A stretch of DNA of 50,990 nt from a bacterium (GTDB lineage Bacteria > Zhuqueibacterota > Zhuqueibacteria > Zhuqueibacterales > Zhuqueibacteraceae), in NCBI GenBank assembly GCA_044869275.1, contig JBIOXB010000050.1, positions 1 through 50,990 on the forward strand. The letters are read 5' to 3'. The position numbers were made by a program, and so were the translations under genes. How positions within the stretch are numbered: position 1 is the first letter of the stretch; each line of letters starts with the position of its first letter. The notes below the pieces were generated by a model. It did no database searches, was not told where the DNA came from, and saw only the letters and a list, made by a program, of their open reading frames with translations. Shown here piece after piece: positions 27,909 to 49,349 of this stretch.

Positions 27909-27983
27909 TTTGGCAGATCCAAGTTTTGTGAAGGGATAATCGCCAACACTCGGCGTGTTTTCAATCAACGTGGCGCAGCTTGC

Positions 27984-30061: not shown

Positions 30062-30155
30062 CAGTTTTCCTCCGCACGTGAAGATGAGTTGCTTATAGAC
30101 GGACTTGGGGAATGATAAAGCAGAGCGCCTTTCTATCTCGTTATGGCAGAATAAC

Positions 30156-31538: not shown

Positions 31539-31573
31539 ATTCCTCCTGCGTGGGTGAAAAAGCGGAAGATTCA

Positions 31574-36000: not shown

Positions 36001-36175
36001 TCTCCGGCGCGCTTCCCGGCCAGGAGGCCGTGACCGACAGTTTGGGAAAATCCACCTCGGGCGCGAGCTCCAGCGGCAGATGCCAGGCCTGATAAAGACC
36101 TGTTGCCGCGGCGGCCATCATGAACATGGCGACAGCGACCGGACGGCGGATGAGTCTGCGCAGCAAGGATTGCAT
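33023..36175 (-). CDS. RND efflux transporter permease (AcrB/CusA superfamily)
   Basis: PLELAPEVDFP, VTSPIE, GILVDNAIVVVENI, GIVVNNAIIMVD, RLRPILMTSLTT. Confidence 0.93.
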   Translation of the reverse strand: MQSLLRRLIRRPVAVAMFMMAAAATGLYQAWHLPLELAPEVDFPKLSVTASWPGSAPENVEAFVTSPIEAVAHTLPHVRKASSESFEGRMRVAIEFNRRAEMDFITLELGEKLSNLARELPFGVSTPQIEAYIPKEFQTEGFLSYQLAGDLPPHALRTFALEKLRGPLLSLNGIAAVEVLGGEERELHILVDRARLETYALTLAEVQQALVSAQLRRPVGRLVNAAQQVDLVLESFEETIDRLAQLPLTKNGITLTLNQIATLQFQIVPPLTVTRIDGKPAVMLRILRQPGTNSLQVADAVCQKIETLKGTFPGDLRLLNAQDETARLRTDLRDLFVRSCVSLLVVLSVLLLFLRSWRASGIVIATVFLAVLLALNLFGMAGLGLNLLTLAGFALGIGILVDNAIVVVENIARLRAGEGERGRLGERETGGQGEWESKSNSIDGQDDIEIAARGTAEVGVAILASTLTAVVAFIPFLYLAGELREYYQSFALAVCASLAASLLVAFALTPTLAARLSSRKEVLKKRASPRNPPASVFPTAPFLRLPFHLAYQRLLVTILRFRWLTLLLALGLFGGSLYVFLKKVTRGSPWKWGEETHIVAWVQLPTGAQLERADAIARFFEERIVNQPQVDRVFTQVSAENVTLRLSFTEAARTSLSPLLLKEQLTLLATRIAGVGIGISGFGPGFATGVDNVSQQFPLRVLGYSYAEVKKFAEEIGRVLSRHPRVSRVNTSGTGWYTNDTGFETVLAIDRQKLRGYGLTVQSTLAQLGAYLREDFTRQEMQVHGEPMIYRVKFSDFERLELQSLFTLTLRGEEGQQVHLREIAHLEERPAQSSIARENQQYQRWITFEFRGPWKLARRFAESIAKHTLLPPGYRLEQPQWGRENEGVERELWKVIALSLLLIFMVTAALFESYQQPFIIMTAVPLALIGVFAVFWMTDQPFDRSAYIGVVLLGGIVVNNAIIMVDHINQLRERGLEKHAAIIAGASHRLRPILMTSLTTIAGLLPMVIAADKTGLWYALALATIGGISSAAILGLLVTPAIYAVISGRD

Positions 36176-36257: not shown

Positions 36258-36719
36258 TCATTCGAGCGCAACCTGAACGACCGCCAAGTCTGTTCTGTTG
36301 GAAATTTCCTCCATTCCCGGCCATTCGTTTGTCTGCATGGCCAGATGGAACCAATTTTCTATTTCCTGGTGCCCATCATTTTTTACCATAAAGAGCACAA
36401 CCGCGAAACCCTTGCCGGAAACACCCCGTTCGGAAATCGTCTCCGTCCAATTGGAGGCGTTTCGGGCAATCTCTTTTTGCGGCCACAGCAACCGGCCGAT
36501 TTTAATCGCAAGCCAGACGTGATGATTTTCAGAAATTCCCCGCAATTCCCCGCTGACCGTGAATGTGGTGGGTACAATGCCGTTTTCCCGGGGGGAGAGA
36601 ATGTCGCCACTGGGATAAAAAGGAATTAGAGCAGCAATCACCGTGGCCACAGTTCCAATGATCGCGGTGATCAGCGCAATTCCTCCGATTGTTTTCCAGA
36701 GCGATTTATTCTGCACCAT
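36258..36719 (-). CDS. Hypothetical membrane-anchored protein with a beta-rich soluble domain
   Basis: N-terminal TM, ILSPRENGIV..TFTVSG Ig-like start; overlaps the formyltransferase end. Confidence 0.6.
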   Translation of the reverse strand: MVQNKSLWKTIGGIALITAIIGTVATVIAALIPFYPSGDILSPRENGIVPTTFTVSGELRGISENHHVWLAIKIGRLLWPQKEIARNASNWTETISERGVSGKGFAVVLFMVKNDGHQEIENWFHLAMQTNEWPGMEEISNRTDLAVVQVALE

Positions 36720-37593
36720 TCGGGCACTTGCCTTCTTTTGACCGTGCTGCACTGGATTCGCAATCCCTTGGGGTTGATCGAGCAGGAATGCCTACGGGGG
36801 CATACTTCAGCAATTCCAAGTAACCGTTTCTTAACCTGAGCATGCGTTTAGCTGCATCAAAACGATCGTGAAATTTGAATTCAAATAGAAAAAACATTTG
36901 GTTTTGAAAATTGCAGACCAGGGGATATTGCCCGCGAAAGGCGCGTGAAACCCTGAGCACCTCCGCATGAGATGAAGCTTCATCAATCACAAAGTCCATC
37001 ACGTTCAATCTTGGATAATACCTGGCTTTGCTTTCATCCTGCGGGGAAAAGCTCAGTTCATGCAACTGCAGTTTTTCCCAAAATGCTCCGACCGCCCTTT
37101 TCCCGGCGCGGGCCGCTTTGAAGAACAACGTGCGATTGTCGTCATTTGGTTCTATTCCAAAACTGGCCTGTACGCAGATTGGCCCCGCGTCAAAATTTTG
37201 ATCGATGCGATGCAGGGTCACTCCTCCTTGAGTTTCATCATGCAGCAGTTGCTGCATGACGGGTTCCGGCCCTCGATACTTTGGCAATAGGGAAGCATGG
37301 ATATTGACGATGGGACAGGAGGTGGAATCGATGAAGCTCGGCGGTATCTTGTGCGGCCATCCCGCCATCAGGATTGCATCCAATTCTTTATCTGCAAAAA
37401 CTGCATAACTTTCTTTTGACGAATAAAGGCACACAAACGCAGTTTGGAATAACTCTGCAAACTTATATCCGCTGGCGGAATCGGCGACCATGATGAGATC
37501 CAGTGCACAGTTTTTCAGAAGGCTTGGATCTTGGAGAAAAACTGCTCCCCAGGGTCCAGAAGCTATAAATCCTATCCTATTCAATTTTACCAA
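36706..37593 (-). CDS. N10-formyl-THF-dependent formyltransferase (Fmt-like)
   Basis: VNIHASLLPKYRGPEP and GVTLHRIDQNFDAGPI; RBS AGGAGG before TTG. Confidence 0.88.
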   Translation of the reverse strand: MVKLNRIGFIASGPWGAVFLQDPSLLKNCALDLIMVADSASGYKFAELFQTAFVCLYSSKESYAVFADKELDAILMAGWPHKIPPSFIDSTSCPIVNIHASLLPKYRGPEPVMQQLLHDETQGGVTLHRIDQNFDAGPICVQASFGIEPNDDNRTLFFKAARAGKRAVGAFWEKLQLHELSFSPQDESKARYYPRLNVMDFVIDEASSHAEVLRVSRAFRGQYPLVCNFQNQMFFLFEFKFHDRFDAAKRMLRLRNGYLELLKYAPVGIPARSTPRDCESSAARSKEGKCPNGAE

Positions 37594-37711
37594 CCCTCCT
37601 GAATCTGCAGCGATTTTTTTTTCTCAGGGTATTCATCAGAACCAAATTTTGCGAAATTAAGCCTAATCCGCGTCATCCGTGGTCAAGGGAGCGTGAGACA
37701 AGAATGCAGGA

Positions 37712-39946
37712 CTATATGCCAGCCCGATCATCAAATTCCTCGGCTATCATATGTCCTTTTAAAAGCCGGCCGTTCAGAATCTTTTTATACGACCTGGAGG
37801 CATGGCGCAACGATCGCAGAAGCGGAATAGCATGACCTTGCCAACTGGTCAGCGGGAGCCTCATGCACCATGCAACCAGGGGCGAAACAAACCAAAGCGC
37901 GAGAACGGGGCTTGCCGCGGGTAATGCCTCCGGCCGCAGAAATGCCAAGCAACTCAACGTTCCGAGCGAGATGGCCGGAGCGGCCCACATCGATTTGTAA
38001 GTGCTCCACAAATCCACCGGGGCAATGTTTTCGCTGTCTTCCGCAGTGGTCCATTCCAACAAGCGCTGGTGTGTAAAAAATCTTCGCCAAACCGCAGACA
38101 AAATCGTCTGCAAGCTGAAGACGGCATCGTAAGGCAAGCTAACCATCCAAAACCCCAGCTTGCCGGCCTCCCTGGCAAACGATTGCAGGGCAGCATGAAG
38201 TTGGTCAGCTCGACGTTGTGGGCTGGGCTTGCGGAGCAAATCCATTATTAACTTCAGAACCAGCGGAAATCCGTTTATGCCTGCCAAAAATACGCTGCCC
38301 AGCCACGCCGGCCACCAGAACATCCAGCTCATGATCAGAAACAGTGTGGTTCCAAGTTGAAGAAGACTGCGCCTAAGATTATCAATAATCTTCCAGCGCG
38401 AAAGCAGCGTGATCGGATTTTTGTGCAGCACATCTTGAGGGCCGCGAACATGCGGCAGCAACCAGCAGGCATTCTGCCAATCCCCCCTGATCCATCGGCG
38501 CCGGCGCGCCGCTTCTGCGGCGTAACTCGAGGGATACTGCTCAAAGAAAATAATGTCACTCACCAGCCCGGAGCGCGCATAAAAACCTTCGAGATGATCA
38601 TGGCTGATCACGCGATTCTCAGGGATGCGCCCTTTCATGCACTTTATGAATATGTCGAGATCATAAATCCCCTTGCCCACAAAAGTGCCGTTGTCGAACA
38701 AATCCTGATAGACGTCAGCAGCTATTGACGATCGGGAGTCAATGGGCGGTTCACTCCAATAGAGTTCCGTAAAGATCGACCTTTGCGCTCCGCTTGCCGG
38801 TTTCGCAATCATTCGTGGCTGGAGAATCCCATAGCCTTCTCGCACGCATTTTTGTTCGTCATCAAACTCCGGTGCATTGAGCGGATGTGCCATGGTCGCG
38901 ATCAGAGGTCGTATGGCATCGCGCGGCAGTTCGGTGTCGGCATCGACGGTGACCACATACCTGATGCTCTGAAGAATCGAGGTGTCGCCAACGATCAGAG
39001 AAAAGCAATGCGAAGTCCCGGCGCGCAACAGTGAATGCAGCTCGGCGAGCTTCCCACGTTTGCGTTCGTGCCCCATCCACAGTTTTTCGTGGTGATTCCA
39101 TCGGCGCGGCCGGTGAAAGAGGAAAAAAATGGGATTTTTTCCTCGCCTATACTTTTGATTCAGCGCAACGATGCCATTTTGTGCTTGCCGGAGAAGCAGT
39201 TCGTCCCGCGGATTGATTTCCTGCTTGGAGTCACAGAAATCAGTCAGCAAAGAAAAATAAATATTCGGATCGTTGTTCCGCAAATAATGGGTTTCGAGGG
39301 CTGCCAGCAAATCATGAACCACCTGGGGATTACTCAGAAAGCACGGCACAGTGACGAGCGTCCGCATGGCGGGTGGAACACCGGCAGAAAAATCCATGCG
39401 GGGAAGCCGCCGCGGAGGTGCGAGAAACGCAACCAGCCAGTTGGCAACCAAAACCGCGAATTGACTTGCACAAAGCAGTGACGAAGCCGCAGCGAGGGCG
39501 AAAGACCACACACGCAACTGCTCAGAATGAGACAAGATCAAAATAGCCGCGGCGAGACCGGCAGTCATCACCGTGATAAATCCGAGATACAAAAAGATTG
39601 CTCCTCGCTTCACCATCGTCTGAAGCATTCGAGCGGCAGATTTCTCCGCATGCGCCGCCCGTTCTAGCCCAGCGTATCCTTGGCCCATCAGGTAAAAGCC
39701 AACATGCGCCGCACGGTCGTTCTTACCCTTGACGGCAGCGGCTTCCGCTGCCAATTTTACCGCCAGCCGGGCAATCTCGCCCTCCCAGTACGGGCTCCGT
39801 CCCGAGATCGCATGAACCGCATCGCCATAGAGCGCGCGTGTGTGGGCGTCCATGTCAGCATAAACACCGCCTGGATCCCGGCTGAGAATCTGCTCGACGA
39901 CTTTATGGGTTTCGGCAAGCGCGGGTTCCCTCTTGCCGGAAGACAT
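37712..39946 (-). CDS. Stand-alone NdvB/Cgs-type (GT84-like) glycosyltransferase module with TM helices
   Basis: RDPGGVYADMD, LPRMDFSAGVP, WMGHERKRGKL, TVDADT, GYGILQPR, FVGKGIYD, SHDHLEG, RRRRWIRGDWQ; about 744 aa, no downstream cyclase or phosphorylase domains. Start 39946 or 39961. Confidence 0.85.
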   Translation of the reverse strand: MSSGKREPALAETHKVVEQILSRDPGGVYADMDAHTRALYGDAVHAISGRSPYWEGEIARLAVKLAAEAAAVKGKNDRAAHVGFYLMGQGYAGLERAAHAEKSAARMLQTMVKRGAIFLYLGFITVMTAGLAAAILILSHSEQLRVWSFALAAASSLLCASQFAVLVANWLVAFLAPPRRLPRMDFSAGVPPAMRTLVTVPCFLSNPQVVHDLLAALETHYLRNNDPNIYFSLLTDFCDSKQEINPRDELLLRQAQNGIVALNQKYRRGKNPIFFLFHRPRRWNHHEKLWMGHERKRGKLAELHSLLRAGTSHCFSLIVGDTSILQSIRYVVTVDADTELPRDAIRPLIATMAHPLNAPEFDDEQKCVREGYGILQPRMIAKPASGAQRSIFTELYWSEPPIDSRSSIAADVYQDLFDNGTFVGKGIYDLDIFIKCMKGRIPENRVISHDHLEGFYARSGLVSDIIFFEQYPSSYAAEAARRRRWIRGDWQNACWLLPHVRGPQDVLHKNPITLLSRWKIIDNLRRSLLQLGTTLFLIMSWMFWWPAWLGSVFLAGINGFPLVLKLIMDLLRKPSPQRRADQLHAALQSFAREAGKLGFWMVSLPYDAVFSLQTILSAVWRRFFTHQRLLEWTTAEDSENIAPVDLWSTYKSMWAAPAISLGTLSCLAFLRPEALPAASPVLALWFVSPLVAWCMRLPLTSWQGHAIPLLRSLRHASRSYKKILNGRLLKGHMIAEEFDDRAGI

Positions 39947-39987
39947 CTGGCTTCTTTCCATACTCTTTTGCAAAGGCCCATTTTGCG

Positions 39988-41052
39988 TTAATTCGTGCCC
40001 ACCAATCCTCTGAGCGTTGTTGCACAGTGCTCTTCCTGATCGGAGATGGTCATCAGTCTTTTGGAAATACGAGGCAAGATCTCTTCCGCATTCTGCTTGC
40101 CTGCTTTCACCAGCATGTTTCTGACCACCACCCAATGTTCACATATTTCATTGAGCTGACTGGAGCAGTTTTCCAATCGCTTCTCTTGCAAAGCAGCCGC
40201 CGCGCCATGCAAGAAAGTCGAGAACCATTTTCTTTGGGTCGCCAAGGTCTGCAGTTGCATGGGGTCGAGAATTTGCGCGAGGCCTGCCTTTGGATCGCCG
40301 CCGCTTTGGTGGCTCCAGGAAAGCAGGTCTTGAGCCAATGCTCTTATACCGCTGATGCCGGCAAAAATGCCGGCATAATGATTGTTGTCCAGCATGATAT
40401 CCGTTGCCATTCTTAGAATTCTTTGCAGGGTTGATTCATGATATGGAGCCGGCGTTTCGGGGAACTGAAATTCGTAAACCGTATTGCCGGCGGAGTGCAA
40501 AGCATGCAAAAAGTCCGGCAAGCCTACGTCCTTTTCAACAAATTCGATCATGAACGTGTTTTTAACGAAGACATGTTCATACTCTATCAATTTGGTGGTG
40601 CTGTTTTTGCGGTCCAGGCCTATGAGTATGCACATATGAAAAAAATGCGAGTACATAAAGTTGTAGCGGTAATGAGGCAGGTAATATTGATCCAACATCA
40701 CGAGCAAAGGCTCATTTTGGGCGAGCCTTTGTTCCAGCTGTTCCTGAACAGAATGGCCGGAGTTCATATGTTTTGCCCGCATGTTGATCTGGTCGATTTC
40801 ACGGAGATGGCGCTCAAAATGCGTGAAACAATGCACCGCTGGCACAGGCACGGCTTTTTGCTCCCGGTGCGAGACGGGATTGCTTCTATAATAGAAATCG
40901 TACTCTTTACACATCACGAGATCCAAATTCTCGTACCCATGGTAACGCAGAATCCCTCCGATTGAAGAAAACGTACAGTGATACGGCACGATCGCGTTCC
41001 CGCTCTTGGCCGGGACGTAGGGAAGGCATTTATTGAGGTCGATAGTGCTCAT
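39988..41052 (-). CDS. BtrH N-terminal-domain protein (papain-like fold, putative ACP-dependent acyltransferase)
   Basis: YHCTFSS (Cys), PLLVMLDQYYLPHY, HFFHMCILIGLD (His), GISGIRALAQDL helical C-domain; RBS GGAGG. Confidence 0.75.
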   Translation of the reverse strand: MSTIDLNKCLPYVPAKSGNAIVPYHCTFSSIGGILRYHGYENLDLVMCKEYDFYYRSNPVSHREQKAVPVPAVHCFTHFERHLREIDQINMRAKHMNSGHSVQEQLEQRLAQNEPLLVMLDQYYLPHYRYNFMYSHFFHMCILIGLDRKNSTTKLIEYEHVFVKNTFMIEFVEKDVGLPDFLHALHSAGNTVYEFQFPETPAPYHESTLQRILRMATDIMLDNNHYAGIFAGISGIRALAQDLLSWSHQSGGDPKAGLAQILDPMQLQTLATQRKWFSTFLHGAAAALQEKRLENCSSQLNEICEHWVVVRNMLVKAGKQNAEEILPRISKRLMTISDQEEHCATTLRGLVGTN

Positions 41053-41053
41053 G

Positions 41054-41671
41054 TTATCCCCCTCCCCTCGCGCCCTGCATGGTCAAGCAAAAGATATGCA
41101 TGGAGGGGTTATCAGGAAATTCAATCTGGCGTAGTCCTCTTTGCTCATTTAATTCGATCTTTTGCATCCACAAATGCGGCTTGATTCTTGTTTTCCTGAA
41201 CCCGGGAATTTCAAAATATGAAACATCACCCTCCGGCGTGTGATAATGGCTGCATGCCAGGGCAGGGGCATCGTTGAAAAAGGAATCTTGACAGAAGAAT
41301 TCGCTCAAAGCGAGTTCCCTTTTTTCTGGGATGCCATCTGCATAATGCAAGGTTAGGGTGTCTTTAAAGCTTCCATTCTCTGACGCGCCAATCACAAAAA
41401 TGCGCGCATAGCACCTCGGCGGAACGGCCACGCAGTTTCCGCACAAAGCGAGATTATTACCCTTGCCGTCGCTTTTGTCTGGGAACCAAAAGGGCACGTG
41501 CTCATGCTCAAAGATAGATTCGGATTCAGGTAATTCTTCGGCCGGAAAGGTTTTCTCCCAGGAGTCGAAGTCCCCGTCCCCGCGATTGGCATCATAAGAG
41601 ATGCCATCATTGTTGAAGAATCCCGACAGATCGATAATTTCAAAGTGCCGGGCGTTCCTCCGAAGTGGCAT
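41054..41671 (-). CDS. Hypothetical beta-sandwich protein resembling accessory domains of glycoside hydrolases
   Basis: IDLSGFFNNDGIS...GDFD...FPAEELP...VPFWFP...NNLAL.G...LHYADG...IEFPDNPSMHIFCLT. Confidence 0.6.
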   Translation of the reverse strand: MPLRRNARHFEIIDLSGFFNNDGISYDANRGDGDFDSWEKTFPAEELPESESIFEHEHVPFWFPDKSDGKGNNLALCGNCVAVPPRCYARIFVIGASENGSFKDTLTLHYADGIPEKRELALSEFFCQDSFFNDAPALACSHYHTPEGDVSYFEIPGFRKTRIKPHLWMQKIELNEQRGLRQIEFPDNPSMHIFCLTMQGARGGG

Positions 41672-41963
41672 TGGGTATGCAGCTCTCTGCTTTTTTGCTC
41701 GAAAGACCGGAACCGCTTTTCCTCAAGTTCTCTATTTCTTCGACCAGATGTGTCAGGCTATTGACCTCGGCAAGGGTAATATCGTCCCTGAAACGGATCT
41801 GGAATTCCTCTTCAATAGCTGCAATAAAACTCATGAGCGCGAGGCTGTCCAGATCGAAGAGTTCCGTCACGCTTTGGTTGAGATCCGTCAAAGCGCGAAC
41901 ATGGCCGTCATTGCATTTACCCGGCGCAATTTCCAGGAGCTTTGCAAGAATTTTCTGATCCAT
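41640..41963 (-). CDS. Acyl carrier protein
   Basis: LFDLDSLALMSFIAAIEEEFQIRF: phosphopantetheine Ser in a DSL motif. Confidence 0.85.
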   Translation of the reverse strand: MDQKILAKLLEIAPGKCNDGHVRALTDLNQSVTELFDLDSLALMSFIAAIEEEFQIRFRDDITLAEVNSLTHLVEEIENLRKSGSGLSSKKAESCIPNATSEERPAL

Positions 41964-41969
41964 ATGCGG

Positions 41970-42443
41970 TTACCGGGAGAAGATCGAATCAACGGCCGCT
42001 TCGAATGCTGCGATATTATGATTCTCATAGACCGAGAATGAAGTTCGCTCGTCATTGAGATCGTGGCGTTCGACAATAATGGGGCTCTTGCGATTCTCAT
42101 AAACTTGTAACGCTTCATTGGGAATCGTCACCATCCGGAGGGCAGGGCCGAAAGCAATGTTCTTGAAGTAGTTTTCATAGATCAGCGCGTTGGTGAATAC
42201 CAATGTTCTGTCCAAATTTTTGTGATACCAATAATTGGCCAGAAACTGGTTGCAGAAACCACAGCCCTGTGAGGTCAGGATCACATAGAATCTCGCGCTG
42301 TCGGATTGACTCGTGATGAGCTTGATTTCGGCGGAGGTGAGCCCAGGTTCAGGCATGGGCGTGGAGGAACGAGAACACCCGCCCAGGAAGCCCGCGAGGC
42401 ACAACCCCACAATGAGCCAACGGTTCCGGTCTGGTCGCATCAT
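41970..42443 (-). CDS. Lipoprotein with a thioredoxin-like CxxC motif
   Basis: Lipobox LGGC; FYVILTSQGCGFCNQF; later KSPIIV (candidate cis-Pro). Confidence 0.65.
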   Translation of the reverse strand: MMRPDRNRWLIVGLCLAGFLGGCSRSSTPMPEPGLTSAEIKLITSQSDSARFYVILTSQGCGFCNQFLANYWYHKNLDRTLVFTNALIYENYFKNIAFGPALRMVTIPNEALQVYENRKSPIIVERHDLNDERTSFSVYENHNIAAFEAAVDSIFSR

Positions 42444-42466
42444 TCTGCCTTTTCGACATGAAGAAA

Positions 42467-43552
42467 CTATTCTGGCTCCAAAGAGACAATTCTCCATCCG
42501 GTAAGCGTTCTTTGGATGTCGTTCGCCTCGTCTTCATCGCTTTCGCTCACAAAATAGACGTGCTCAGCATCATTGCACCGCACGTTCGAGCCTAGTTTTT
42601 CACGCATGGCATAATTCAAAGTGATGGTGTCGAGGGCGTTGAGTTGCAAATCAAAAATAAAAAGCTTTGTCGTCCGGGTCTGTTCATCCGTTCTTCCATC
42701 TTCGATTTCTGCAACAATAAATTTGCCGAGTATGTGCAATCCACAAACACGGCTGTTGTTAAACAAGTACTCTTTCATCTCCTCAAAGGTGGCGGCAGAA
42801 CTAAAATCTAAATTCTTCTTTTCAACCTTAAACTCTGAATCCCTGATCAAACAAGACTGCTCTTCAAAGTTTTTGAGGTTCATGAGGTGTATGGTGTTTT
42901 CAGCCGGGCTGGCATAGAAAACGACGTCTCCCCGGCTTGCCAAGCCTCCGGAACCTGCATAGAACATCAGCATATCATGCTGAGAATTTCTCAACCCAAA
43001 TGTTCGCACCATTGACTTTTTGCCCACATCATAAACAGCAATAAAGTGAGCTCTCCGCCCGCCAGCCAAATACAGGACAAACCTATTGTCAAAATAAATG
43101 AAATTGCTTATCGCTTCTGAGAATCCAGTGATTTCCTTGAGGGGGAGTCCGTTTTCTTGATAAAGAATGAACTTTACAGCATTTTCATCCCACACAAAAA
43201 TTGTGTCGCCACGAGATTTTATCTTGTGGGGAGATCCGTATTCATAGGGCCCTTGACCCCACCGGCCCAAAGTATCAATTTGACGGCCCTTCTCATTATA
43301 TAACACCAAATTGGCGGGTTGGATGCTTGAGACCACGAATTTATTCTGCCCGACTGGTGCGACACTTGCTATGTGGCTCAATTTTCTCAAGTTTTCTTCC
43401 AAGTCTACTCTTTTTGCTTCCACCAGCGCCAGCGTTTGATGACTGCCAACCAATTTAGTTTGTGCAAAGGCGAGCGCCTGCATGAATAATACCATCGAAA
43501 TCGTGAACCTATCTGTGCACAGTCTTATACGAAGAAAGTTCAGCATAAACAT
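42467..43552 (-). CDS. Exported 6-bladed beta-propeller protein
   Basis: Signal peptide; LYNEKGRQIDTLGRWGQGPYEY, DTIFVWD repeats. Confidence 0.8.
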   Translation of the reverse strand: MFMLNFLRIRLCTDRFTISMVLFMQALAFAQTKLVGSHQTLALVEAKRVDLEENLRKLSHIASVAPVGQNKFVVSSIQPANLVLYNEKGRQIDTLGRWGQGPYEYGSPHKIKSRGDTIFVWDENAVKFILYQENGLPLKEITGFSEAISNFIYFDNRFVLYLAGGRRAHFIAVYDVGKKSMVRTFGLRNSQHDMLMFYAGSGGLASRGDVVFYASPAENTIHLMNLKNFEEQSCLIRDSEFKVEKKNLDFSSAATFEEMKEYLFNNSRVCGLHILGKFIVAEIEDGRTDEQTRTTKLFIFDLQLNALDTITLNYAMREKLGSNVRCNDAEHVYFVSESDEDEANDIQRTLTGWRIVSLEPE

Positions 43553-43616
43553 TTTTCCATGGCGAATGATGCAGCAATTTGCAAGGGTCTGAATAAACGT
43601 CGAAGGTGATAACTTC

Positions 43617-43718
43617 TACTACAACGTTAAGTTCACATTTTTGCACCAAAAACTGCACTGTCATCCCGAAGCATCGGGATGACAAGTCTAGTGGTGGCGT
43701 TGACTTAACGTTGTAGTA
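43617..43718. mobile_element. MITE-like element: perfect terminal inverted repeats around a REP-like hairpin
   Basis: TACTACAACGTTAAGT (43617-43632) / ACTTAACGTTGTAGTA (43703-43718); inner TGTCATCCCGA-AGCA-TCGGGATGACA (43659-43684). Confidence 0.7.
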
Positions 43719-43769
43719 CTACTATCCACCTTTGATGGTTTGGCTTTGGCCCTTTTGCTTTCGCAGTCG

Positions 43770-43925
43770 TCAGAAGCAAGGATAGCAAGGGCGAGGACCT
43801 CCATTCACGCACATCCAAAAACCATCGGAGTAGACAAAGATATGCCACACATCGTGTGCGCACGAAGGACCTTCGTGCAAATAAACCATGTTTTTTGAAG
43901 GAATGGGCTTCATCACTTTTTTCAT
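43770..43925 (-). CDS. Cys/Trp-rich precursor peptide 3 (51 aa): MKKVMKPIPSKNMVYLHEGPSCAHDVWHIFVYSDGFWMCVNGGPRPCYPCF
   Basis: Manually translated, absent from the ORF track; RBS AAGGAGG; homologous to the two upstream peptides. Confidence 0.9.
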   Translation of the reverse strand: MKKVMKPIPSKNMVYLHEGPSCAHDVWHIFVYSDGFWMCVNGGPRPCYPCF

Positions 43926-43949
43926 GGTTTTCCTCCTTGAGCCACAGGA

Positions 43950-44123
43950 TTAGCAACGGCCGATGGCGGCAACGCATGGAGCACATATCCATTGGCCGCT
44001 TGAGACGCACCTCCACGCACCAGTGCTATTGATTTCCATGTGCCAAATCGGGGCGCAACACCAAGGGCCTTCATACAGATGAAGTTCGCTCTTTAAGCGT
44101 GTGGGTTTGATCGTTTTTTTCAT
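43950..44123 (-). CDS. Cys/Trp-rich precursor peptide 2 (57 aa): MKKTIKPTRLKSELHLYEGPWCCAPIWHMEINSTGAWRCVSSGQWICAPCVAAIGRC
   Basis: Manually translated, absent from the ORF track; RBS GGAG; same leader and Cys spacing as its neighbours. Confidence 0.9.
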   Translation of the reverse strand: MKKTIKPTRLKSELHLYEGPWCCAPIWHMEINSTGAWRCVSSGQWICAPCVAAIGRC

Positions 44124-44156
44124 GGCTTTTCTCCGTAGGATGGGTGAAGCTGTTGA

Positions 44157-44327
44157 TCAAACGGGACAGCATCCCTTGCACACTTGAATTCCTCCAGTTA
44201 CACAAGTCCAGCTGCCGTCTGGAAAGTGTTGCACATACCATAGATGAGTACAACACCAAACACCGCTGCTAAATTCATAAAGATATAGTTTCTCTCCAGA
44301 ACGGATGCTTTTGATCGTTTTCTTCAT
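44157..44327 (-). CDS. Cys/Trp-rich precursor peptide 1 (56 aa): MKKTIKSIRSGEKLYLYEFSSGVWCCTHLWYVQHFPDGSWTCVTGGIQVCKGCCPV
   Basis: RBS GGAGGA before ATG 44327; paralog of peptides 2 and 3. Confidence 0.9.
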   Translation of the reverse strand: MKKTIKSIRSGEKLYLYEFSSGVWCCTHLWYVQHFPDGSWTCVTGGIQVCKGCCPV

Positions 44328-44387
44328 GGGTATTCCTCCAGTTGATGCAATAAACCGCATAAGCCAATGTCCAGAGACAGTTCGTCA

Positions 44388-44753
44388 CTATTCGAGCACG
44401 ATCACTGAATGATAGCCCTCATACGGAGGCGGAATCTTTTTCTTTCTGGGGTTGAGCGGATCGTTGATCCAGTCTTTGCCATTGATAAAAAACCTGTACT
44501 CCAAAGTCTTATGCGGATTCAATATCGTCATCACCCATACCGAATCATGGTTTTCCATCGGTGCCATCAGCCAGCTGCCATTGGCATCGGAGCCAAATTC
44601 GACTTTTTCGTAGTTGTTATTTCTAAGCCGGAATTCCACGATTTCGTCCGTCACCTTGACTGATTTCGGCACCTGGCTGTTTTCCTTTCGAAGACAGGAG
44701 CTTTGAACACAAATCAGCAACCCCAGCAGAAGGCAACGGTAGCGGGTTTTCAT
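44388..44753 (-). CDS. Lipoprotein with a CBM48/AMPK-glycogen-binding-like domain
   Basis: Lipobox-like QSSC; VEFGSDANGSW..PM....VW....LEYRFFINGKDWINDPLNP. Confidence 0.75.
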   Translation of the reverse strand: MKTRYRCLLLGLLICVQSSCLRKENSQVPKSVKVTDEIVEFRLRNNNYEKVEFGSDANGSWLMAPMENHDSVWVMTILNPHKTLEYRFFINGKDWINDPLNPRKKKIPPPYEGYHSVIVLE

Positions 44754-44764
44754 ATGATTCCCCA

Positions 44765-46495
44765 TCACGACGCTGCAAGCAAGCGATCCACCGTATTGGA
44801 AACGACTTTTTCAAAATCTCGTTTGGTGGCGTTGTCAAAGCACACCGTCTGAAAGACAGGCTGCCCGGTTTTTGCGGCAACATATTGCGAAATGCGCTGC
44901 ACGAGTTCTTCCGGATCGGAAGGGTTGGTCATCAGTATGGTTTTGTCCGGCAAGGCGGCCGTAAAAAAATGCTCCGAAAAAATGCAACCATAGTAATAAG
45001 GATCGGGACTCATCACACCGCTTTGCGCGCCGGCGATGATAACGTCATATTGCCCTTTATCCATTTCCGAGAGCACTCGGCGCAAGAGAGGGATATGAAA
45101 ATCCAACGGCATTTGCAGCGAGTTCATGGCACCGTATCCGGAGGGAAATGTGAATTCCACGCCGAAACATCCGCAGTGATGCTCAGTGCCAATCTGCCCA
45201 ACGCGGTGTCCCCTTTTCTGGAATTCATGTCGCAATGCCAATTGCATGGTGAACTTGCCTTGTTGTGCGCTGGTGCCAAAGACACCCAGCACCGGCGTAT
45301 CAAAGGCCTTCTTCTCCGGAACGCTTTTCAAAATCTTGATCGCATCCACATGGGTTATTTTTGGAATTTCAAGCCATAACCCCGCCGATTCGAATCTATT
45401 CCGCCACTCCTCCTCCTCGCACGGCGGCAGAAACGAGAATACATTGACATGATGGTTGACGGCATATTCCAAAGCCTCTCGCAGCAGGTCTTTTCGTTGC
45501 GCCGCGCTGGCTTGGTCCAAATAACCCACAAGTAAAGTATCGATACCTTGTGAATCCTCGGGCAGGCCGTGTTGCACCTCGAGGGTTGCGTCACAATTCT
45601 CCAGGACTTGATCGGTGCGCTTGCCGCAGTGCTGGCTCAGCTTGAAGTCGGCAATCCACCCAATTTCATATGGCAACTTATTTCTGAAACGCACAAAGCT
45701 GTGCATTTCCTTGTAAAAGGGATAGAGGCCGGCTTTTTTTATTTTGCGATAAAAGTCATTCCACGGCAGCACGGGCGAAGGATTCAAATCGATCTCACGC
45801 TTGAAAGCTGCGCGCATTTGCAGGAACGAGAGCATCGCAGAGAACTGCTTCGAGATATTCCTGCCAAGCAATTGCTCTGCGAGTGTGCGCGTACAAAGCG
45901 CAGTCGCAAAACTGGACCCTCCGAGGAATACTTGTGAGCCGTTCTTCCACCTTACCCGTTGCCTCGAGCCTCGAAAGATGAAATGGTGTTTTTTGTTCTG
46001 TTCCCATCCCCATTCCGTTTGGTTCTTGTGCGCGCCGCTTTTGACGCTGATCACACCCTCGAAGTTGGCCGGGTAGGTGGTGTAATCTTCATCATTCCAG
46101 GCACACACGAGCACGATCCCCTTTGCAACCGCAAGCTTCACGACTTCTTGCAGTTGGTATTTCGCTTCCGGATCGATCGTACCTATCGAGCAATTCAGTA
46201 GATCGATCTCATCCTGCAAGACGCAGTGCAATGCGCGTCGCAGCTTGGGGATCTCGACATGGGCTTCCCGATCGAAGGCCTTGTAAATGAACAAGCGTAT
46301 CTCTTCGGGAGTAAAGTTGCGCGTAATCAAATCTGCACAGGCCGTGCCGTGACCGATTTGGTCCTCGTATGCCGCCGTGGCCATCGCTCCGGTTTCGACA
46401 TGAATGCCCTTTTCCACAAAGCGCATCAAGCGTTGATCCTGAGTATCTATGCCACTGTCAATAATTCCGATTCTAAGCGGCATATGTGCGCGCAT
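44765..46495 (-). CDS. S8 subtilase fused to a DUF1611/TIGR04066-like P-loop domain (putative peptide maturase)
   Basis: Triad IIDSGI / DQIGHGTAC / GGSSFATA, oxyanion CAWND; C-terminal PVLGVFGTSAQQGKFTMQLALR...GQIGTE...IIAGAQSG; RBS AGGAG before ATG 46495. Confidence 0.8.
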   Translation of the reverse strand: MRAHMPLRIGIIDSGIDTQDQRLMRFVEKGIHVETGAMATAAYEDQIGHGTACADLITRNFTPEEIRLFIYKAFDREAHVEIPKLRRALHCVLQDEIDLLNCSIGTIDPEAKYQLQEVVKLAVAKGIVLVCAWNDEDYTTYPANFEGVISVKSGAHKNQTEWGWEQNKKHHFIFRGSRQRVRWKNGSQVFLGGSSFATALCTRTLAEQLLGRNISKQFSAMLSFLQMRAAFKREIDLNPSPVLPWNDFYRKIKKAGLYPFYKEMHSFVRFRNKLPYEIGWIADFKLSQHCGKRTDQVLENCDATLEVQHGLPEDSQGIDTLLVGYLDQASAAQRKDLLREALEYAVNHHVNVFSFLPPCEEEEWRNRFESAGLWLEIPKITHVDAIKILKSVPEKKAFDTPVLGVFGTSAQQGKFTMQLALRHEFQKRGHRVGQIGTEHHCGCFGVEFTFPSGYGAMNSLQMPLDFHIPLLRRVLSEMDKGQYDVIIAGAQSGVMSPDPYYYGCIFSEHFFTAALPDKTILMTNPSDPEELVQRISQYVAAKTGQPVFQTVCFDNATKRDFEKVVSNTVDRLLAAS

Positions 46496-48089
46496 CGCCT
46501 GGCTCCTGGATATACCGTTCGCACCGCATGTCGTCCGGAGGACGCGACTCAAATAGATATTCTCCGTGCTCGATCATAATTGATTTCCGGGCATTCAACC
46601 AGGCGAGCAGGCCCGCTTTGATCTGCGCTTTGAGGGTGAGATCGAGAGAATTAAAGCCCTCATCGACAACAAGCAGGCGCGGATTTTTGACCACCGCACT
46701 GACGAGCACCGCGGCTTGTTTTTGACCCCGCGAGATGGCTTCGGAATGCTCCGAGATGAGCGTCGAGAATCCACTCGGAAAAGCCGACATGAGCGCTTCC
46801 AGCCTTTGCGCCCGCAGCAACTGGAGGACTTCCTGCGCGGAAACCTCGCGCCCGGCGATGATGCGAATATTGTCAAGCAGCGTTCCCGGAAATACCATCG
46901 GGTCCGACGGAATCAAAAACCATTTTTCATTCACCACTTTGCCGCTCAAATCGTCAAATCCGGACAATATCTGCGAGAAAGTGGTCTTGCCCGCACCGTT
47001 TTCCGCGGTAAGATGAAAGAGGAATTTATCCGTTCGAGGCAGCAGAATGCCGCTTTTCAAGGTGCCGTTGAAAAATGGATGGTTGGTTCTGTCGGTTAAT
47101 GGATCAGTCGTCGCCTGCTCCGGGGATTCGAAAGCCAGCATCTCGTGAATTCTAAGGGTCGCAACGCGGTCTATTTTTGCGGATACTGCTGTTTGCCCCA
47201 ATCCCATCGCTATTTGGCTGGCCCGCCCGGCATACATGATCAACGCGAACACCTTTCCCGCCGTAAACGTGCCCGAGCGGTGATCAAAGCGTATGATGCA
47301 CAAAACGGCAATCGTACCCACCAGCAAATTGGCGAGGGCCAGCGCTTGATTTATTTTTTGCGCCTGATGTGCAAATTGGACTTGTTCCTGTTCCATTTGT
47401 TCCGCCAGGCGCCGGAAGTTTTGGAGATGAAAGGGCAACAATCCCCAGGAGAAAGTCAACGCTGGTTGTTGCATGCCCTGTTGAAAAGTTTGCATGAAAG
47501 AAGATCCCAGAGCTCGGAGCGTTGCCGCGCGCGCATTCAAGTAATTGTTCCCGAGATAGGTTATGGCGAAGACCAGCGGCAGGTAAACCATCAGGAGCAC
47601 CCCGACGTGCCAAGACATATAATGCAAAATTGCCAAAGTGCCAAAGAGCAGCACACTTTGAAAAATCACGCTGTGAGACAAATCAATGACGAAGGATTTG
47701 ACTGAGTACACATCTTGCGTAAGACGCGTCAAAACGTCGTTGGGATAGAATTTTTTCCAAAAGCTGCGCCTTTGAGTCAGAGCAGAATGATAGACGGACG
47801 AGATCACGTCGATCATCAAACTTTCGCTCACCCAGGCCGCTAAAATAGTGTAACACCAGGAGAATCCGATGGTGAGCAATACCAATCCCCCAAAAGCAGC
47901 CATTCCCCAAGCAAAAATCCTCCCTGTCTCAAGGCCGATGATCGCATCGATCGTTCTTTGGAATTGTATGGGGATGAGTAATTGGCACGCCAGCAATAAC
48001 CCCAGGATGAGAAACAGAATAAGTTCTTGCTTCCAAAACTTTTTCCAAAAGGGAAAGATGAATTCAATTATGGTCCTGAAATCAGACAT
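46473..48089 (-). CDS. ABC exporter (fused TMD-NBD), no C39 peptidase domain
   Basis: Six TM, DVLTRLTQDV, Walker A-like AENGAGKTT, signature ISRGQKQ, Walker B LVVDEG, H-loop IEH. Confidence 0.88.
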   Translation of the reverse strand: MSDFRTIIEFIFPFWKKFWKQELILFLILGLLLACQLLIPIQFQRTIDAIIGLETGRIFAWGMAAFGGLVLLTIGFSWCYTILAAWVSESLMIDVISSVYHSALTQRRSFWKKFYPNDVLTRLTQDVYSVKSFVIDLSHSVIFQSVLLFGTLAILHYMSWHVGVLLMVYLPLVFAITYLGNNYLNARAATLRALGSSFMQTFQQGMQQPALTFSWGLLPFHLQNFRRLAEQMEQEQVQFAHQAQKINQALALANLLVGTIAVLCIIRFDHRSGTFTAGKVFALIMYAGRASQIAMGLGQTAVSAKIDRVATLRIHEMLAFESPEQATTDPLTDRTNHPFFNGTLKSGILLPRTDKFLFHLTAENGAGKTTFSQILSGFDDLSGKVVNEKWFLIPSDPMVFPGTLLDNIRIIAGREVSAQEVLQLLRAQRLEALMSAFPSGFSTLISEHSEAISRGQKQAAVLVSAVVKNPRLLVVDEGFNSLDLTLKAQIKAGLLAWLNARKSIMIEHGEYLFESRPPDDMRCERYIQEPGDARTYAA

Positions 48090-48146
48090 GGACGTTGACT
48101 TGAGCCTGCGGCCTGCATCTTGCCAATATGTTTTGTGTCTGCTTCT

Positions 48147-48411
48147 TCAATACCTGTACCACAGTTTTGTGGATTGTTCGAGTCGGCGCCGGATTCTTTC
48201 AAATCAGACAATTATGTTTGCCTGCAGTTGGAATTTCGAGCGCGCTGCAACAGCGCCGCGAATTGGATTTTGCACTGCCCGGCAGCGCAGTTTTCTACAA
48301 GTCAAATCAAAATAAAGGCAACTCTGCTGCTGCAAAATGTATTATCCGACGCGGCCTCTGCAATTTAATCTCTGGAAAACCAAGAGGATGGGTTGCTGGT
48401 GCAAAATGCAC
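48147..48411 (-). promoter_or_regulatory. sigma54-type promoter region of the peptide cluster (-24/-12, IHF site, enhancer repeats)
   Basis: Minus TGGTAC-AGGTA-TTGA (48147-48161); IHF consensus AATCAG-ACAA-TTA (48202-48214); TGCAAAAT repeats at 48263-48275 (rc), 48331-48341 and palindrome GTGCAAAATGCAC 48399-48411. Confidence 0.6.
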
Positions 48412-48422
48412 AGTCCCCCATC

Positions 48423-49349
48423 TTAAAGCTTATATTGAACCATTTTGCGCTTGAGAGTGCTGCGGTCGATATGCAAAATTCTGCTTGCGTGTGTCAAGTT
48501 GTTCCTGGTTTCTTCCAAAACCGCCGCAATATGCCGACGCTCGAGCTCTTCCAGGCTCCAGCACTGTGTTTTGGCTTTGGATAATAGCGTCTCGCAGCGC
48601 AGGTCCAAATCAAAATCTTGTGGCAGTAACTCTGAGTTCTTGCAGTTGACCAAAGCCTTGACGATGGCGTTTATCAGCTCGCGCACGTTGCCGAGCCAGG
48701 AATGATGGAGAAGCAGTTCGTGCGCCGCTGGAGTAAAGTGCGCAGTTTTGCCCAGCTTTGCGCTGTAAACTTTCAGGTAATGCTCAGCCAGCGGCAAAAT
48801 GTCTTCCTTGCGTTCACGCAGAGAGGGAATAGTAACGCTGAATTGATCCAGGCGAAAATATAGATCACGGCGGAAATCGCCTTTTTCAACAAGCTCGCGC
48901 AGATTTGCGTTCGTGGCGGCAATCAAACGAAACCTTGAGCACAATTCTTGCCGCCCGCCCAGACGGCGGAATAGGCCACCGCTTTCTACGACGTGCAAAT
49001 AATTAGTTTGTACTTCCAGGCTCAGGTTTTGAATCTCATCCAGGAAAAGCGTGCCCCCATTTGCCTGTTCGAGCAAGCCGATTTGTTGCACGCTGGCGCT
49101 GGTAAAGGCACCTTTTTCATGGCCGAAAAGCATGCTTTCGACTATGTTTTGCGGCGTGGCGCCCACATCCAACATCACAAAGGCGCCGGCCCTTTGCGCG
49201 CTCGCGCCATGAATGTGGCGCGCGATCAAGGTTTTGCCGGTACCGGTTTCGCCATAAAGGAGAATGCTAATCGAGGTTGGAGCGACCTCCCGGAGCTTGT
49301 GCAGAACTTCCTGCATGGCGCGGCTTTTGTAAAGAATCGTGGCTTCCAT
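48423..49349 (-). CDS. sigma54-dependent Fis-family enhancer-binding protein lacking an N-terminal sensory domain
   Basis: GETGTGKT, ESMLFGHEKGAFTSA, GGTLFLDEI, RLIAATN, FRRDLYFRL, WLGNVREL, C-terminal Fis HTH. Confidence 0.92.
   Translation of the reverse strand: MEATILYKSRAMQEVLHKLREVAPTSISILLYGETGTGKTLIARHIHGASAQRAGAFVMLDVGATPQNIVESMLFGHEKGAFTSASVQQIGLLEQANGGTLFLDEIQNLSLEVQTNYLHVVESGGLFRRLGGRQELCSRFRLIAATNANLRELVEKGDFRRDLYFRLDQFSVTIPSLRERKEDILPLAEHYLKVYSAKLGKTAHFTPAAHELLLHHSWLGNVRELINAIVKALVNCKNSELLPQDFDLDLRCETLLSKAKTQCWSLEELERRHIAAVLEETRNNLTHASRILHIDRSTLKRKMVQYKL

Follow-up and report, generated by a model that had tools for sequence, protein, structure and literature searches.

A minus-strand gene cluster for small cysteine-rich peptides with a conserved S8-DUF1611 and carrier-protein core

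What could a bacterium make from a cluster in which three short Cys- and Trp-containing ORFs lie among a protease fusion, a carrier protein, a formyltransferase and a glycosyltransferase (GT)? A first-pass annotation of the window (the whole stretch of 50,990 nucleotides analysed here) had proposed a Gram-negative, radical-SAM-free variant of a clostridial peptide system, defined by this enzyme set. The co-oriented cluster that it had drawn at 36258..49349 was confirmed, every ORF being present and 15/15 genes lying on the minus strand; to call the genes largely overlapping was an overstatement, overlap being found at 3 of the 14 junctions and gaps of 1-333 nt elsewhere. The claimed families were recovered (sigma54 activator, ABC exporter, Peptidase_S8 with DUF1611, DUF5128 propeller, PP-binding ACP, BtrH_N with DUF4872, Formyl_trans_N and Cgs-type GT), LanM and YcaO were, as claimed, not found among the cluster ORFs with Pfam and NCBIfam, and LpxB marks the host as diderm, in agreement with the Gram-negative assignment. 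We conclude that the cluster is genuine and bacterial, and that it encodes small Cys-rich peptides, which are probably cut from a leader, capped via a carrier protein and closed by disulfides. Genes, folds, catalytic residues and co-occurrence form the direct basis of the pathway model described below; the reactions, the product and expression are predictions from sequence.

The three small ORFs, A1 (56 aa, 44157..44327), A2 (57 aa, 43950..44123) and A3 (51 aa, 43770..43925), all on the minus strand, are paralogues with 39-43% pairwise identity, each preceded by an SD-like motif. They share a Lys-rich leader (17 aa in A1) ending in L-Y/H-E, and their predicted cores, starting from Glu, have 39 aa with 6 Cys and 3 Trp (A1), 40 aa with 6 Cys and 4 Trp (A2) and 34 aa with 4 Cys and 2 Trp (A3). 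No Pfam or NCBIfam family matched them over cut-off, tblastn at E<=1e-3 found no further paralogues in the genome, and among its 82,461 small-ORF candidates A1-A3 were the only 3 loci reaching at least 22 bits with a leader HMM, which was seeded with A1-A3 themselves. As the first-pass annotation had anticipated, peptides of this type recur beside S8-DUF1611 fusions in other genomes: 23 matches of at least 12 bits (13 of them HMM seeds, several from duplicate loci), with a leader ending in L/A-Y, usually followed by E/D, all lie on the strand of the fusion, and a Bacillus plasmid outside the seed has two annotated 44-aa ORFs with the same leader style between ACP and fusion. P1' is Glu in all nine (9/9) peptides of the window and its close clade. 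TIGR04065, the clostridial precursor model, matched neither the window peptides (0/3) nor the related ones (0/11). With the leader HMM, precursors turned up in no more than 19 of the 89 related loci; among 25 long loci free of radical SAM, a less strict pattern yielded credible candidates in about 3, so some family members may have substrates of another kind. For the window, we consider it very probable that A1-A3 are the precursors of a ribosomally synthesized peptide (RiPP) pathway with the S8-DUF1611 fusion and the ACP as its core.

The core enzyme (44765..46495, minus strand) is an S8 protease (residues about 1-235) joined in one polypeptide to a domain of the DgcN/DUF1611 fold (about 243-576). 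It has no signal or pro-domain, which suggests a cytoplasmic location. The model (pLDDT 91) matched 2g0t with a Z of 27.7, 2obn with 23.2 and thermitase with 23.8. The S8 domain has the subtilisin fold with an Asp-His-Ser triad and an oxyanion Asn, and these residues (D13, H49, S195 and N134) are invariant in 25/25 close homologues; its best NCBIfam match is the leader protease QhpE, at 110 bits below the cut-off of 165. It is quite likely that this cytoplasmic protease would cut L-Y/H-E on the C-terminal side of its Tyr/His, removing the 17-aa leader and leaving an N-terminal Glu.

The partner that travels with the fusion is an acyl/peptidyl carrier protein (41640..41963, minus strand; PP-binding, 25 bits) with an intact phosphopantetheine Ser40; D39 and S40 are invariant in 15/15 sequences. 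It occurs in 69 of the 89 related loci, and in 66 of the 71 with at least 400 nt downstream; under a strict count, 40 of these 71 have it at -120 to +300 nt from the end of the fusion. The accessory genes are much rarer (BtrH-like 27, sandwich 9, formyltransferase 1, GT 0, each of 89), thus the data do not support the enzyme set listed by the first-pass annotation as defining the system: only S8-DUF1611 and ACP are conserved. Neither is absence of a radical SAM enzyme the mark of a special variant, being the majority state (27 of 35 well-flanked related loci). The fusion loci span at least six phyla. It must be noted that the tree was a quick search without bootstrap, covering 58 sequences between 500 and 800 aa after removal of duplicates and partial ORFs, that long branches meet in it, and that the close clade consists of few genomes (L047, L048 and L072, in our locus numbering, are one MAG, and only L049 has at least 5 kb on both sides).

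It is instructive to compare this core with the clostridial CLI_3235/CcpM cassette (e.g. SacP23 of Paenibacillus polymyxa), which consists of a TIGR04065 precursor, a TIGR04068 radical SAM enzyme, TIGR04066, a TIGR04069 ACP-related protein and an S8 protease. The relation claimed earlier is supported, the fusion scoring 81 bits with TIGR04066, though below the cut-off of 200. Shared features, according to excerpts of PMC10731318 and PMC4573289, are the S8 protease, the TIGR04066-like domain, the ACP, the ABC exporter, and a short Lys-rich leader with a Cys-rich core. The window differs in lacking the TIGR04068 radical SAM enzyme, as the first-pass annotation had stated (0 of the genome's 28 PF04055 matches are on its contig C50, which is cut), in fusing the S8 and TIGR04066-like parts, with all models below cut-off (TIGR04069 gave no match for the ACP), in its even-Cys, Trp-rich cores with a thioredoxin-type partner, and in the added AziU2/BtrH-fold pair, formyltransferase and GT. 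S8-DUF1611 plus ACP is a conserved core, i.e. the clostridial cassette without CcpM. In excerpts of the same papers TIGR04066 is guessed to be an immunity protein and the role of the ACP is untested (PMC10731318, PMC4573289). The radical-SAM-free clusters isolate these two components, and the window offers a direct test, since it has three short substrates for which both the cleavage site and the masses are predicted.

What the DUF1611 half, to which the first-pass annotation had assigned no role, might do is suggested by its fold. DgcN reportedly N-acetylates Glu with acetyl-CoA, and the title of its PDB entry, "N-acetyltransferase DgcN", agrees. The half has the two-domain DUF1611 fold and P-loop of DgcN (7XRJ), TM0796 (2G0T) and Ava_3511 (2OBN), at Z values of 20-28; against 7xrj alone Z was 20.4 (rmsd 3.9, 282 aligned), with the P-loop and flanking motifs in alignment. 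The likeness is distant (14% identity, hhalign probability 30%), and unlike DgcN, which takes part in D-Glu conversion (excerpts of PMC10845958), the window domain is fused to a protease and has an ACP and peptides, not a racemase, as its neighbours. We lean slightly towards a step in which the new alpha-amine is acylated by an ACP-carried group, with the DgcN-fold half as the likeliest catalyst, because it is this half, and not BtrH, that travels with the ACP. A predicted DUF1611-ACP complex lends weak support, scoring 0.45 against 0.17 for the best control (runs 0.59, 0.45 and 0.09; pLDDT of the partner 73-77). Of 157 solved pairs 116 attained the mark, as did 2 of 215 mismatches, but 18 of the 157 and both mismatches did so with values of at most 0.60. 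Acylation of a peptide amine would resemble that of selidamides, lipolanthines, goadvionins, lipoavitides and aphotorhaptins, in the last four of which the N-terminus is acylated after leader removal. These use GNAT enzymes (excerpts of PMC13647313), whereas no GNAT family was found with Pfam or NCBIfam among the 15 cluster ORFs. If DUF1611 acylates the freed N-terminus from the ACP, it would be a new type of RiPP acyltransferase beside the GNATs, present in at least six phyla.

Export and oxidation would complete the pathway. The ABC exporter (46473..48089, minus strand; ABC_membrane and ABC_tran) has no C39 peptidase domain, and L005, L044, L045, L046 and L049 have genes 42-60% identical to it immediately upstream of the fusion. 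A lipoprotein with a thioredoxin-type signature (41970..42443, minus strand; lipobox Cys23, CxxC at 61) is a candidate disulfide catalyst: C61, C64 and P121 are invariant in 11/11 aligned neighbours, one neighbour is of the AhpC-TSA/Redoxin type, and L049 has MauE. Together with the even Cys count of 9/9 cores from the window and its close clade (four genomes), against 2/7 in radical-SAM loci, this is consistent with the hypothesis of disulfide-stapled peptides put forward earlier. It appears fairly likely that the peptides leave through the ABC and RND systems and that the CxxC lipoprotein closes 2-3 disulfides in them. Taken as a whole, the model favoured here, in which the leader is cleaved, the N-terminal Glu thus exposed is acylated in an ACP-dependent manner, and the peptide is exported and closed by disulfides, could equally well prove right or wrong. 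Among the smaller components, the 6-bladed beta-propeller (42467..43552, minus strand; DUF5128, E 4.5e-6), an accessory and probably exported protein, has relatives in 6/89 loci, and a single-pass membrane protein (36258..36719, minus strand) has no family over cut-off and occurs in 0/89. The small lipoprotein-like protein at 44388..44753 (minus strand), found in 5/89 loci, all of the close clade, had been named CBM48; a CBM48/AMPK-CBM-like sandwich is indicated by Atlas features (0.95-0.96 to AMPK1_CBM/CBM_48 clusters), and a Pfam match was not obtained.

Two of the accessory genes form an AziU2/U3-type pair, as judged by fold, profile and alignment, which the first-pass annotation had missed. 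The first encodes an AziU2/Azi28-family beta-sandwich (41054..41671, minus strand), predicted as partner subunit of the BtrH-fold protein; its model (pLDDT 96) matches 7wuw_A with a Z of 27.5 (rmsd 2.7, 191 aligned), the next match having 7.7, and the profile E against AziU2/Azi28 is 1e-50, thus by fold and profile it belongs to the AziU2 subunit family of aziridine synthase. The second (39988..41052, minus strand) is a BtrH/AziU3/CtaG-fold protein with BtrH_N and DUF4872, for which a word-indexed search for near relatives matched itself only. In alignment with AziU3 orthologues Cys26, His139 and Glu157 fall at the triad positions, the third residue being Glu, not Asp. A papain-like triad and an adjoining carrier protein are features that it shares with the carrier-protein-dependent amide ligases BtrH, AsbE and CtaG, which move acyl groups off carrier proteins (PMC12865890). 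Unlike these, the window protein has no loading enzyme nearby and has an AziU2-type partner, and its acceptor would be a ribosomal peptide or an ACP-bound unit. The N10-formyl-THF-dependent formyltransferase (36706..37593, minus strand; Formyl_trans_N E 7e-21) has the catalytic Asn/His/Asp motifs and is 47% identical to a gene adjoining the ACP in L045. Other acyl-transfer enzymes take the place of the BtrH-like gene in L061 (a BtrH-PCP-condensation fusion) and L104 (GNATs). The formyltransferase, the sandwich and the GT were each not found in 5/5 incomplete close-clade genomes searched, for which completeness figures are lacking, so that nothing firm follows. We suggest, tentatively and with the balance somewhat against it, that the formyltransferase and the AziU2/BtrH-fold pair build the cap carried by the ACP or add to it; an N-formyl-aminoacyl unit, moved by Cys ping-pong transfer by analogy with BtrH, AsbE and CtaG, would be one example.

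The division of labour could also be the reverse. The DUF1611 domain with its Walker-A-like loop could be an ATPase, kinase or ligase, and would then act as an ATP-dependent activator, loading the ACP via an acyl-phosphate or phosphorylating a hydroxyl, and the BtrH-fold pair, whose characterised relatives transfer acyl groups from carrier proteins, would acylate the peptide. The P-loop (G407-T408...G413-K414) is invariant in 25/25 close homologues, MinD-type ATPases are the next fold matches (Z 12.8-13.3), and among the tailoring domains DUF1611 alone binds nucleotide. The cluster contains nothing else that would load the ACP (adenylation, ATP-grasp, FabH), which also speaks against the favoured model, as does the single AcpS-type PPTase match of the genome. 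We nevertheless regard the reversed roles as unlikely, as most loci with fusion and ACP have no BtrH-like gene in their available flanks, many have a Cys-less BtrH subtype that lacks the nucleophile, and the closest DUF1611 protein to have been characterised bears the title N-acetyltransferase.

Less probable still is that the operon serves two functions. S8, ABC, thioredoxin and propeller would then form a simple system for a secreted, disulfide-bonded peptide, and the ACP, sandwich, BtrH, GT and formyltransferase genes a block that makes or decorates a glycan or small molecule rather than the peptides. The acyl acceptor of BtrH is an aminosugar antibiotic (PMC12865890), among solved structures the formyltransferase is closest to sugar N-formyltransferases, the CBM-like sandwich is attached to many glycosidases (GH38/GH2/GH10/GH39/GH95) as an accessory module, a CBM48-like lipoprotein is present, and the GT is in no related locus. 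However, ACP and protease fusion stay together in different phyla, and the fusion has ACP-sandwich-BtrH as neighbours in L049, L057 and L092, and ACP-formyltransferase-BtrH-like in L045, all without the GT.

We consider it very unlikely that the pair is a cyclase, forming a small N-heterocycle (aziridine or similar) by displacement of an activated hydroxyl, either of an amino acid bound to the ACP or of the peptide itself, and thus an electrophilic cap. The AziU3/U2 aziridine synthase acts by sulfate displacement (PMC12559475; PMC11168924), the gene order sandwich to BtrH-fold is that of AmCP/DADH clusters, true AziU3 orthologues have their Cys/His/Asp at the positions of the window protein's triad, and hhalign (93%, E 3e-7) places the latter in the AziU3 superfamily. 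It is remote from AziU3 all the same, scoring 7-12 bits with AziU3 orthologues of AmCP clusters against 49-57 with L049/L057, and AziU3 was not among its PDB sequence matches. In this peptide-precursor cluster there are no AmCP/DADH pathway or sulfation genes, nor a sulfotransferase, transketolase or aminotransferase, LysW had no match in the 94%-complete genome (the control matched in 4/14), and such pairs are also found in FabH/ACP clusters without AmCP, the sandwich riding on many glycosidases as well. An AziU2/U3-type complex within a ribosomal-peptide cluster would be new enzymology.

The GT (37712..39946, minus strand) is specific to this locus and, by alignment, is a trimmed Cgs/NdvB-type GT84 enzyme without the primer Tyr; the first-pass annotation had named it Cgs-type but missed the trimming and the lost Tyr. 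It aligns with residues 301-958 of 2799 in 8rf9 (E 9e-110) and, like Cgs/NdvB, has the GT domain motifs (DxD, ERKRGK, SHD and RxRWxRGDWQ) and the membrane helices, after which the ORF ends. Unlike Cgs/NdvB it lacks about 300 N-terminal residues, leaving a short N-terminal domain, as well as the cyclase and phosphorylase, and has Arg405 in place of the primer Tyr, which is present in 119/119 homologues and, as Tyr694, essential in Cgs (excerpts of PMC10901819). It keeps 153 of 183 near-invariant columns, the minimum among the 119 homologues being 92%; the 30 lost residues are more than in any of these. Further Cgs pieces were not found in the genome. A standalone family of trimmed Cgs enzymes was considered, but a case for it could not be made, the best homologue having 49% identity and 6/119 being similarly truncated, several on short contigs or fragment-like. 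That the primer-less derivative adds beta-1,2-glucose in trans, possibly to the peptide, is doubtful; an enzyme of Cgs descent that, without a primer of its own, glucosylates another molecule would, if true, be new enzymology. The GT might instead be the remnant of a decaying Cgs, of which a genome from the same genus encodes a 2909-aa version, and the tailoring genes passengers, or a radical SAM enzyme encoded past the contig cut or elsewhere in the genome (28 matches) might complete an ordinary ranthipeptide pathway. This is highly improbable, since simulated neutral decay to the GT's level left no stop in 1/300 runs, the catalytic motifs are kept with 5 changes clustering in residues 401-410, related strains from two other studies carry GT pieces with no coding indel among the differences listed (40 of 330), the GT differences among these being synonymous in 2/2 cases, and L049, on a complete chromosome, has no radical SAM gene within 10 kb on either side.

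The boldest reading, rather unlikely in its entirety, would make S8-DUF1611 plus ACP an undescribed class of N-capped RiPPs, cut and then acylated by one polypeptide with radical SAM optional, the cap, possibly a strained N-heterocycle, being built on the ACP by the formyltransferase and AziU2/U3-type complex, and the disulfide-stapled core glucosylated in trans by the primer-less Cgs derivative. A literature search, with most subscription journals outside its scope, found no characterised product of this enzyme set, no report joining BtrH, RiPP, ACP and precursor, and only unrelated mentions of DUF1611. The fusion profile matched 5/166 other genomes of the phylum (E<=1e-30) and 0/18 in the family, the distribution thus being patchy.

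As to regulation and limits of the cluster, the sigma54-type activator (48423..49349, minus strand; Sigma54_activat E 3e-57, HTH_8 by Pfam) consists of AAA and HTH domains only, without an N-terminal sensor domain, and has a variant GAFTSA loop. It is separated from the next gene by 333 nt and is matched in 2/89 related loci; its membership is uncertain. No exact sigma54 site was found in the intergenic regions of the cluster, and a sigma70 promoter scan gave chance level (12 vs 12.1). The highest-ranked terminator-like site, a 12-bp hairpin 3' of the precursors (43658..43685, minus strand), belongs to a dispersed repeat with 61 blastn matches in the genome, thus it is not specific terminator evidence for A3. 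The cluster probably reaches to an RND permease (33023..36175, minus strand; ACR_tran), co-oriented and 82 nt downstream, and to a divergent RND periplasmic adaptor (49864..50990, plus strand; HlyD_D23, TIGR01730 over cut-off), within which the contig stops at 50990, 0.5-1.6 kb beyond the divergent promoter; no overlapping contig was found in the assembly. RND or adaptor genes also flank the fusion in L050, L056, L065, L082, L103 and L105.

The minus-strand cluster at 36258-49349 is a variant of a known, unexplained cassette, to which two unusual recruited enzymes have been added. Judging from published descriptions of the CcpM cassette (PMC10731318, PMC4573289), it works in the same way, but it differs from it in having neither a radical SAM enzyme nor a TIGR04065 match. 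The lack of a radical SAM enzyme, reported in the first-pass annotation, held in the genome-wide comparison: none of the 28 matches in the genome lies on this contig. The 15 minus-strand ORFs listed there are also present and, in family scans, belong to the families named. The genes had been described as largely overlapping, but overlaps occur at only 3 of the 14 junctions, the remaining gaps being 1-333 nt long. Searches of the open literature, with few subscription journals among it, turned up no characterised cluster that combines these enzymes. The N-acylated RiPPs already known use GNATs (PMC13647313).

The host genome (6.67 Mb, 94% complete) encodes LpxB, and the GC content falls from about 0.56 to 0.46-0.52 across the cluster. 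The contig ends within a divergent RND adaptor gene, and no contig overlapping this end was found in the genome. In two other studies, related strains yielded contigs that match pieces all along the cluster, and every indel listed for them is intergenic. In the ABC exporter gene (46473-48089, minus strand) the region encoding the ATPase domain (46473-47100) is shortened, and the Walker A and signature motifs in it are altered; 9 of the 14 differences listed there against a related strain are non-synonymous.

Related loci (n=89; 39 from metagenomes and 50 from genomes, several of them near-duplicates) were scanned with local HMMs. The ACP was found in 69 of them and in 66 of the 71 with at least 400 nt downstream, radical SAM enzymes in 20, and in 8 of the 35 flanked on each side by 5 kb or more. 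On the basis of these frequencies we conclude that the core of the system is the S8-DUF1611 fusion plus the ACP, and that the radical SAM enzyme is optional. The BtrH-like gene was detected in 27/89 loci, the CxxC protein in 13, the beta-sandwich in nine, the propeller in six, the CBM48-like lipoprotein in five, the formyltransferase in one, and the glycosyltransferase and the membrane protein in none. A quick tree placed the window in a five-row clade with Bacteroidota and Ignavibacteriota MAG loci (SH-aLRT 100).

The fusion (44765-46495, minus strand; 576 aa) matched 848 proteins among 7999 candidates, about 30 of which form a close group with 43-72% identity. Its S8 residues D13, H49, S195 and N134 are invariant in 25/25 close homologues; neither a pro-peptide nor a signal peptide was found in it. 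Structure comparison of the model (pLDDT 91) related the N-terminus to subtilisins and the C-terminus to DUF1611 structures: 2g0t (Z 27.7), 2obn (Z 23.2) and 7xrj (Z 20.4), the last entitled N-acetyltransferase DgcN. The predicted complex between the DUF1611 half and the ACP (41640-41963, minus strand) scored 0.45 against 0.17 for the best control, in a range (up to 0.60) that contained, among the passes in the calibration, 18 of 157 solved pairs as well as both passing mismatches; it lends weak support to such a pairing.

The three candidate precursors A1-A3 (43770-44327, minus strand) have SD-like motifs at each ORF, share 39-43% mutual identity, and are the only strong matches in the genome to a leader HMM seeded with them. 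Peptides with the same leader directly follow the fusion in five of nine close-clade loci (three of the five from one MAG); in the other four the sequence stops at or shortly past the fusion. The leader ends in L-Y/H and is followed by Glu in 9/9 window and close-clade peptides, whose cores are otherwise hypervariable. For the predicted cores of A1, A2 and A3 without modification, the calculated monoisotopic masses are 4318.87, 4347.92 and 3875.62 Da in the reduced state and 4312.82, 4341.87 and 3871.59 Da when all Cys are oxidised. Across the 89 loci leader-HMM peptides were found in 19, with few in the long Latescibacterota loci, which counts against the generality of the precursor pattern. 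The cultured Rosettibacter primus and a relative (L063:3107-8732 and L065:6442-12136) encode a precursor of 132-133 aa that has this leader and 11 Cys, together with a PapB-like radical SAM enzyme, the fusion and an ACP; R. primus offers a tractable host for the fusion family. Upstream of a close-clade fusion (L050:5084-5275) lies a 63-aa Cys-rich ORF with a signal peptide, unlike the L-Y-E leaders.

The number of Cys residues is even in 9/9 window and close-clade cores versus 2/7 in radical-SAM loci, these samples not being independent. In the CxxC lipoprotein (41970-42443, minus strand) C61, C64 and P121 are kept in 11/11 aligned neighbours, chosen partly by position; one neighbour is an AhpC-TSA protein, and MauE occurs in the close-clade locus L049. 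Disulfide closure of the cores after export would therefore fit these observations.

Most likely, the translated precursors would be cut after residue 17 and Glu18 acylated from the ACP, with the DUF1611 domain as the probable catalyst. The cap would then be elaborated by the formyltransferase and the AziU2/BtrH-fold pair, and the capped peptide exported before its disulfides are closed, possibly with glucosylation. Since there is no obvious ACP-loading enzyme among the cluster genes, we also retain the reading that DUF1611 may be an ATP-dependent activator.

The 205-aa sandwich protein (41054-41671, minus strand) has no Pfam match. Its model (pLDDT 96) resembles AziU2 (7wuw_A; Z 27.5, rmsd 2.7, 191 aligned residues; next-best Z 7.7), and its profile matches AziU2/Azi28 with E 1e-50. 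Among its 852 relatives it occurs as an accessory module of glycosidases; one of the 46 scanned is joined to BtrH_N. In all four plasmid regions examined (of 25 matches) the next gene is BtrH-N or DUF6005; two of these regions are AmCP/DADH NRPS clusters, a third is a FabH/ACP cluster and the fourth is of another kind. The FabH/ACP cluster with the AziU2/BtrH pair, on a Bacillus mycoides plasmid (L114:5182-11832), has no amino-group carrier protein. According to two reports, AziU3/U2 is an aziridine synthase working by sulfate displacement (PMC12559475) and shares its fold with CtaG/BtrH (PMC12865890). In the BtrH-fold protein (39988-41052, minus strand) Cys26, His139 and Glu157 align with the AziU3/CtaG triad. 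That the pair closes a ring is a minority reading, because the BtrH-fold protein is only distantly related to AziU3 orthologues (7-12 bits, versus 49-57 bits to L049/L057), and AmCP, DADH and sulfotransferase genes were absent from the cluster family scan, with no LysW match in the 94%-complete genome either. Most likely, the two proteins form an AziU2/U3-type complex performing carrier-dependent acyl transfer. Also encoded next to the fusion is a second subfamily of BtrH-like proteins (L045:9663-10769, L059:12123-13187, L033:380-1432), in which the catalytic Cys is missing and a WEHK motif is conserved. In L049:4537-6559 a transposase insertion splits the AziU2-like gene of an otherwise complete close-clade cluster.

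The formyltransferase (36706-37593, minus strand) has its catalytic motifs. A 47% identical copy, the single such one, is flanked in L045 by the ACP on one side and a Cys-less BtrH-like gene on the other, and this position ties the enzyme to the carrier module, not to the glycosyltransferase.

The glycosyltransferase (37712-39946, minus strand) aligns to residues 301-958 of the 2799-residue Cgs and retains every catalytic motif. Tyr694 of Cgs is an essential autoglucosylated primer (PMC10901819); the residue is Tyr in 119/119 homologues and Arg405 here. Residues 401-410 carry four further changes, and His451 adjoins the catalytic Asp. Only 153 of 183 near-invariant columns are kept, below every homologue; in simulated random decay to this level the open frame survived in 1 of 300 runs. 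The two differences listed for related strains are both synonymous. The gene sits between two genes recurring in relatives, and no homologue above 49% identity was found. The core of A2 has no Tyr. It would be reasonable to read this sequence as a glucosyltransferase no longer tied to a primer of its own.

The fusion and ACP also occur in other settings. A Bacillus mycoides plasmid (NZ_CP035996.1; L117:7295-10696) encodes them with two 44-aa leader peptides and a DUF692 enzyme, and similar fusions are found on six Bacillus plasmids. In a Latescibacterota locus (L061:12278-14971) the domain scan revealed a BtrH-PCP-condensation fusion of about 900 aa just downstream of S8-DUF1611 and the ACP; a local HMM detected a counterpart of about 900 aa in L058:12279-14981, also from Latescibacterota. 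It is possible that these loci are RiPP-NRPS hybrids. At L104:2072-9356 and L106:10097-14478 the fusion and ACP have three GNATs and one radical SAM enzyme as neighbours, and no leader peptide was detected; these loci may represent a non-peptide use of the module.

Elsewhere on the contig, genes for large TPR proteins and, after them, ExbB/ExbD lie at 7710-18920. The minus strand at 18987-32806 carries a long series of transporter genes (citrate-type, two SSF, SDF, three APC permeases and a nucleoside transporter). On another contig of the genome (C200, 2835-12765) six radical SAM matches lie inside 10 kb.
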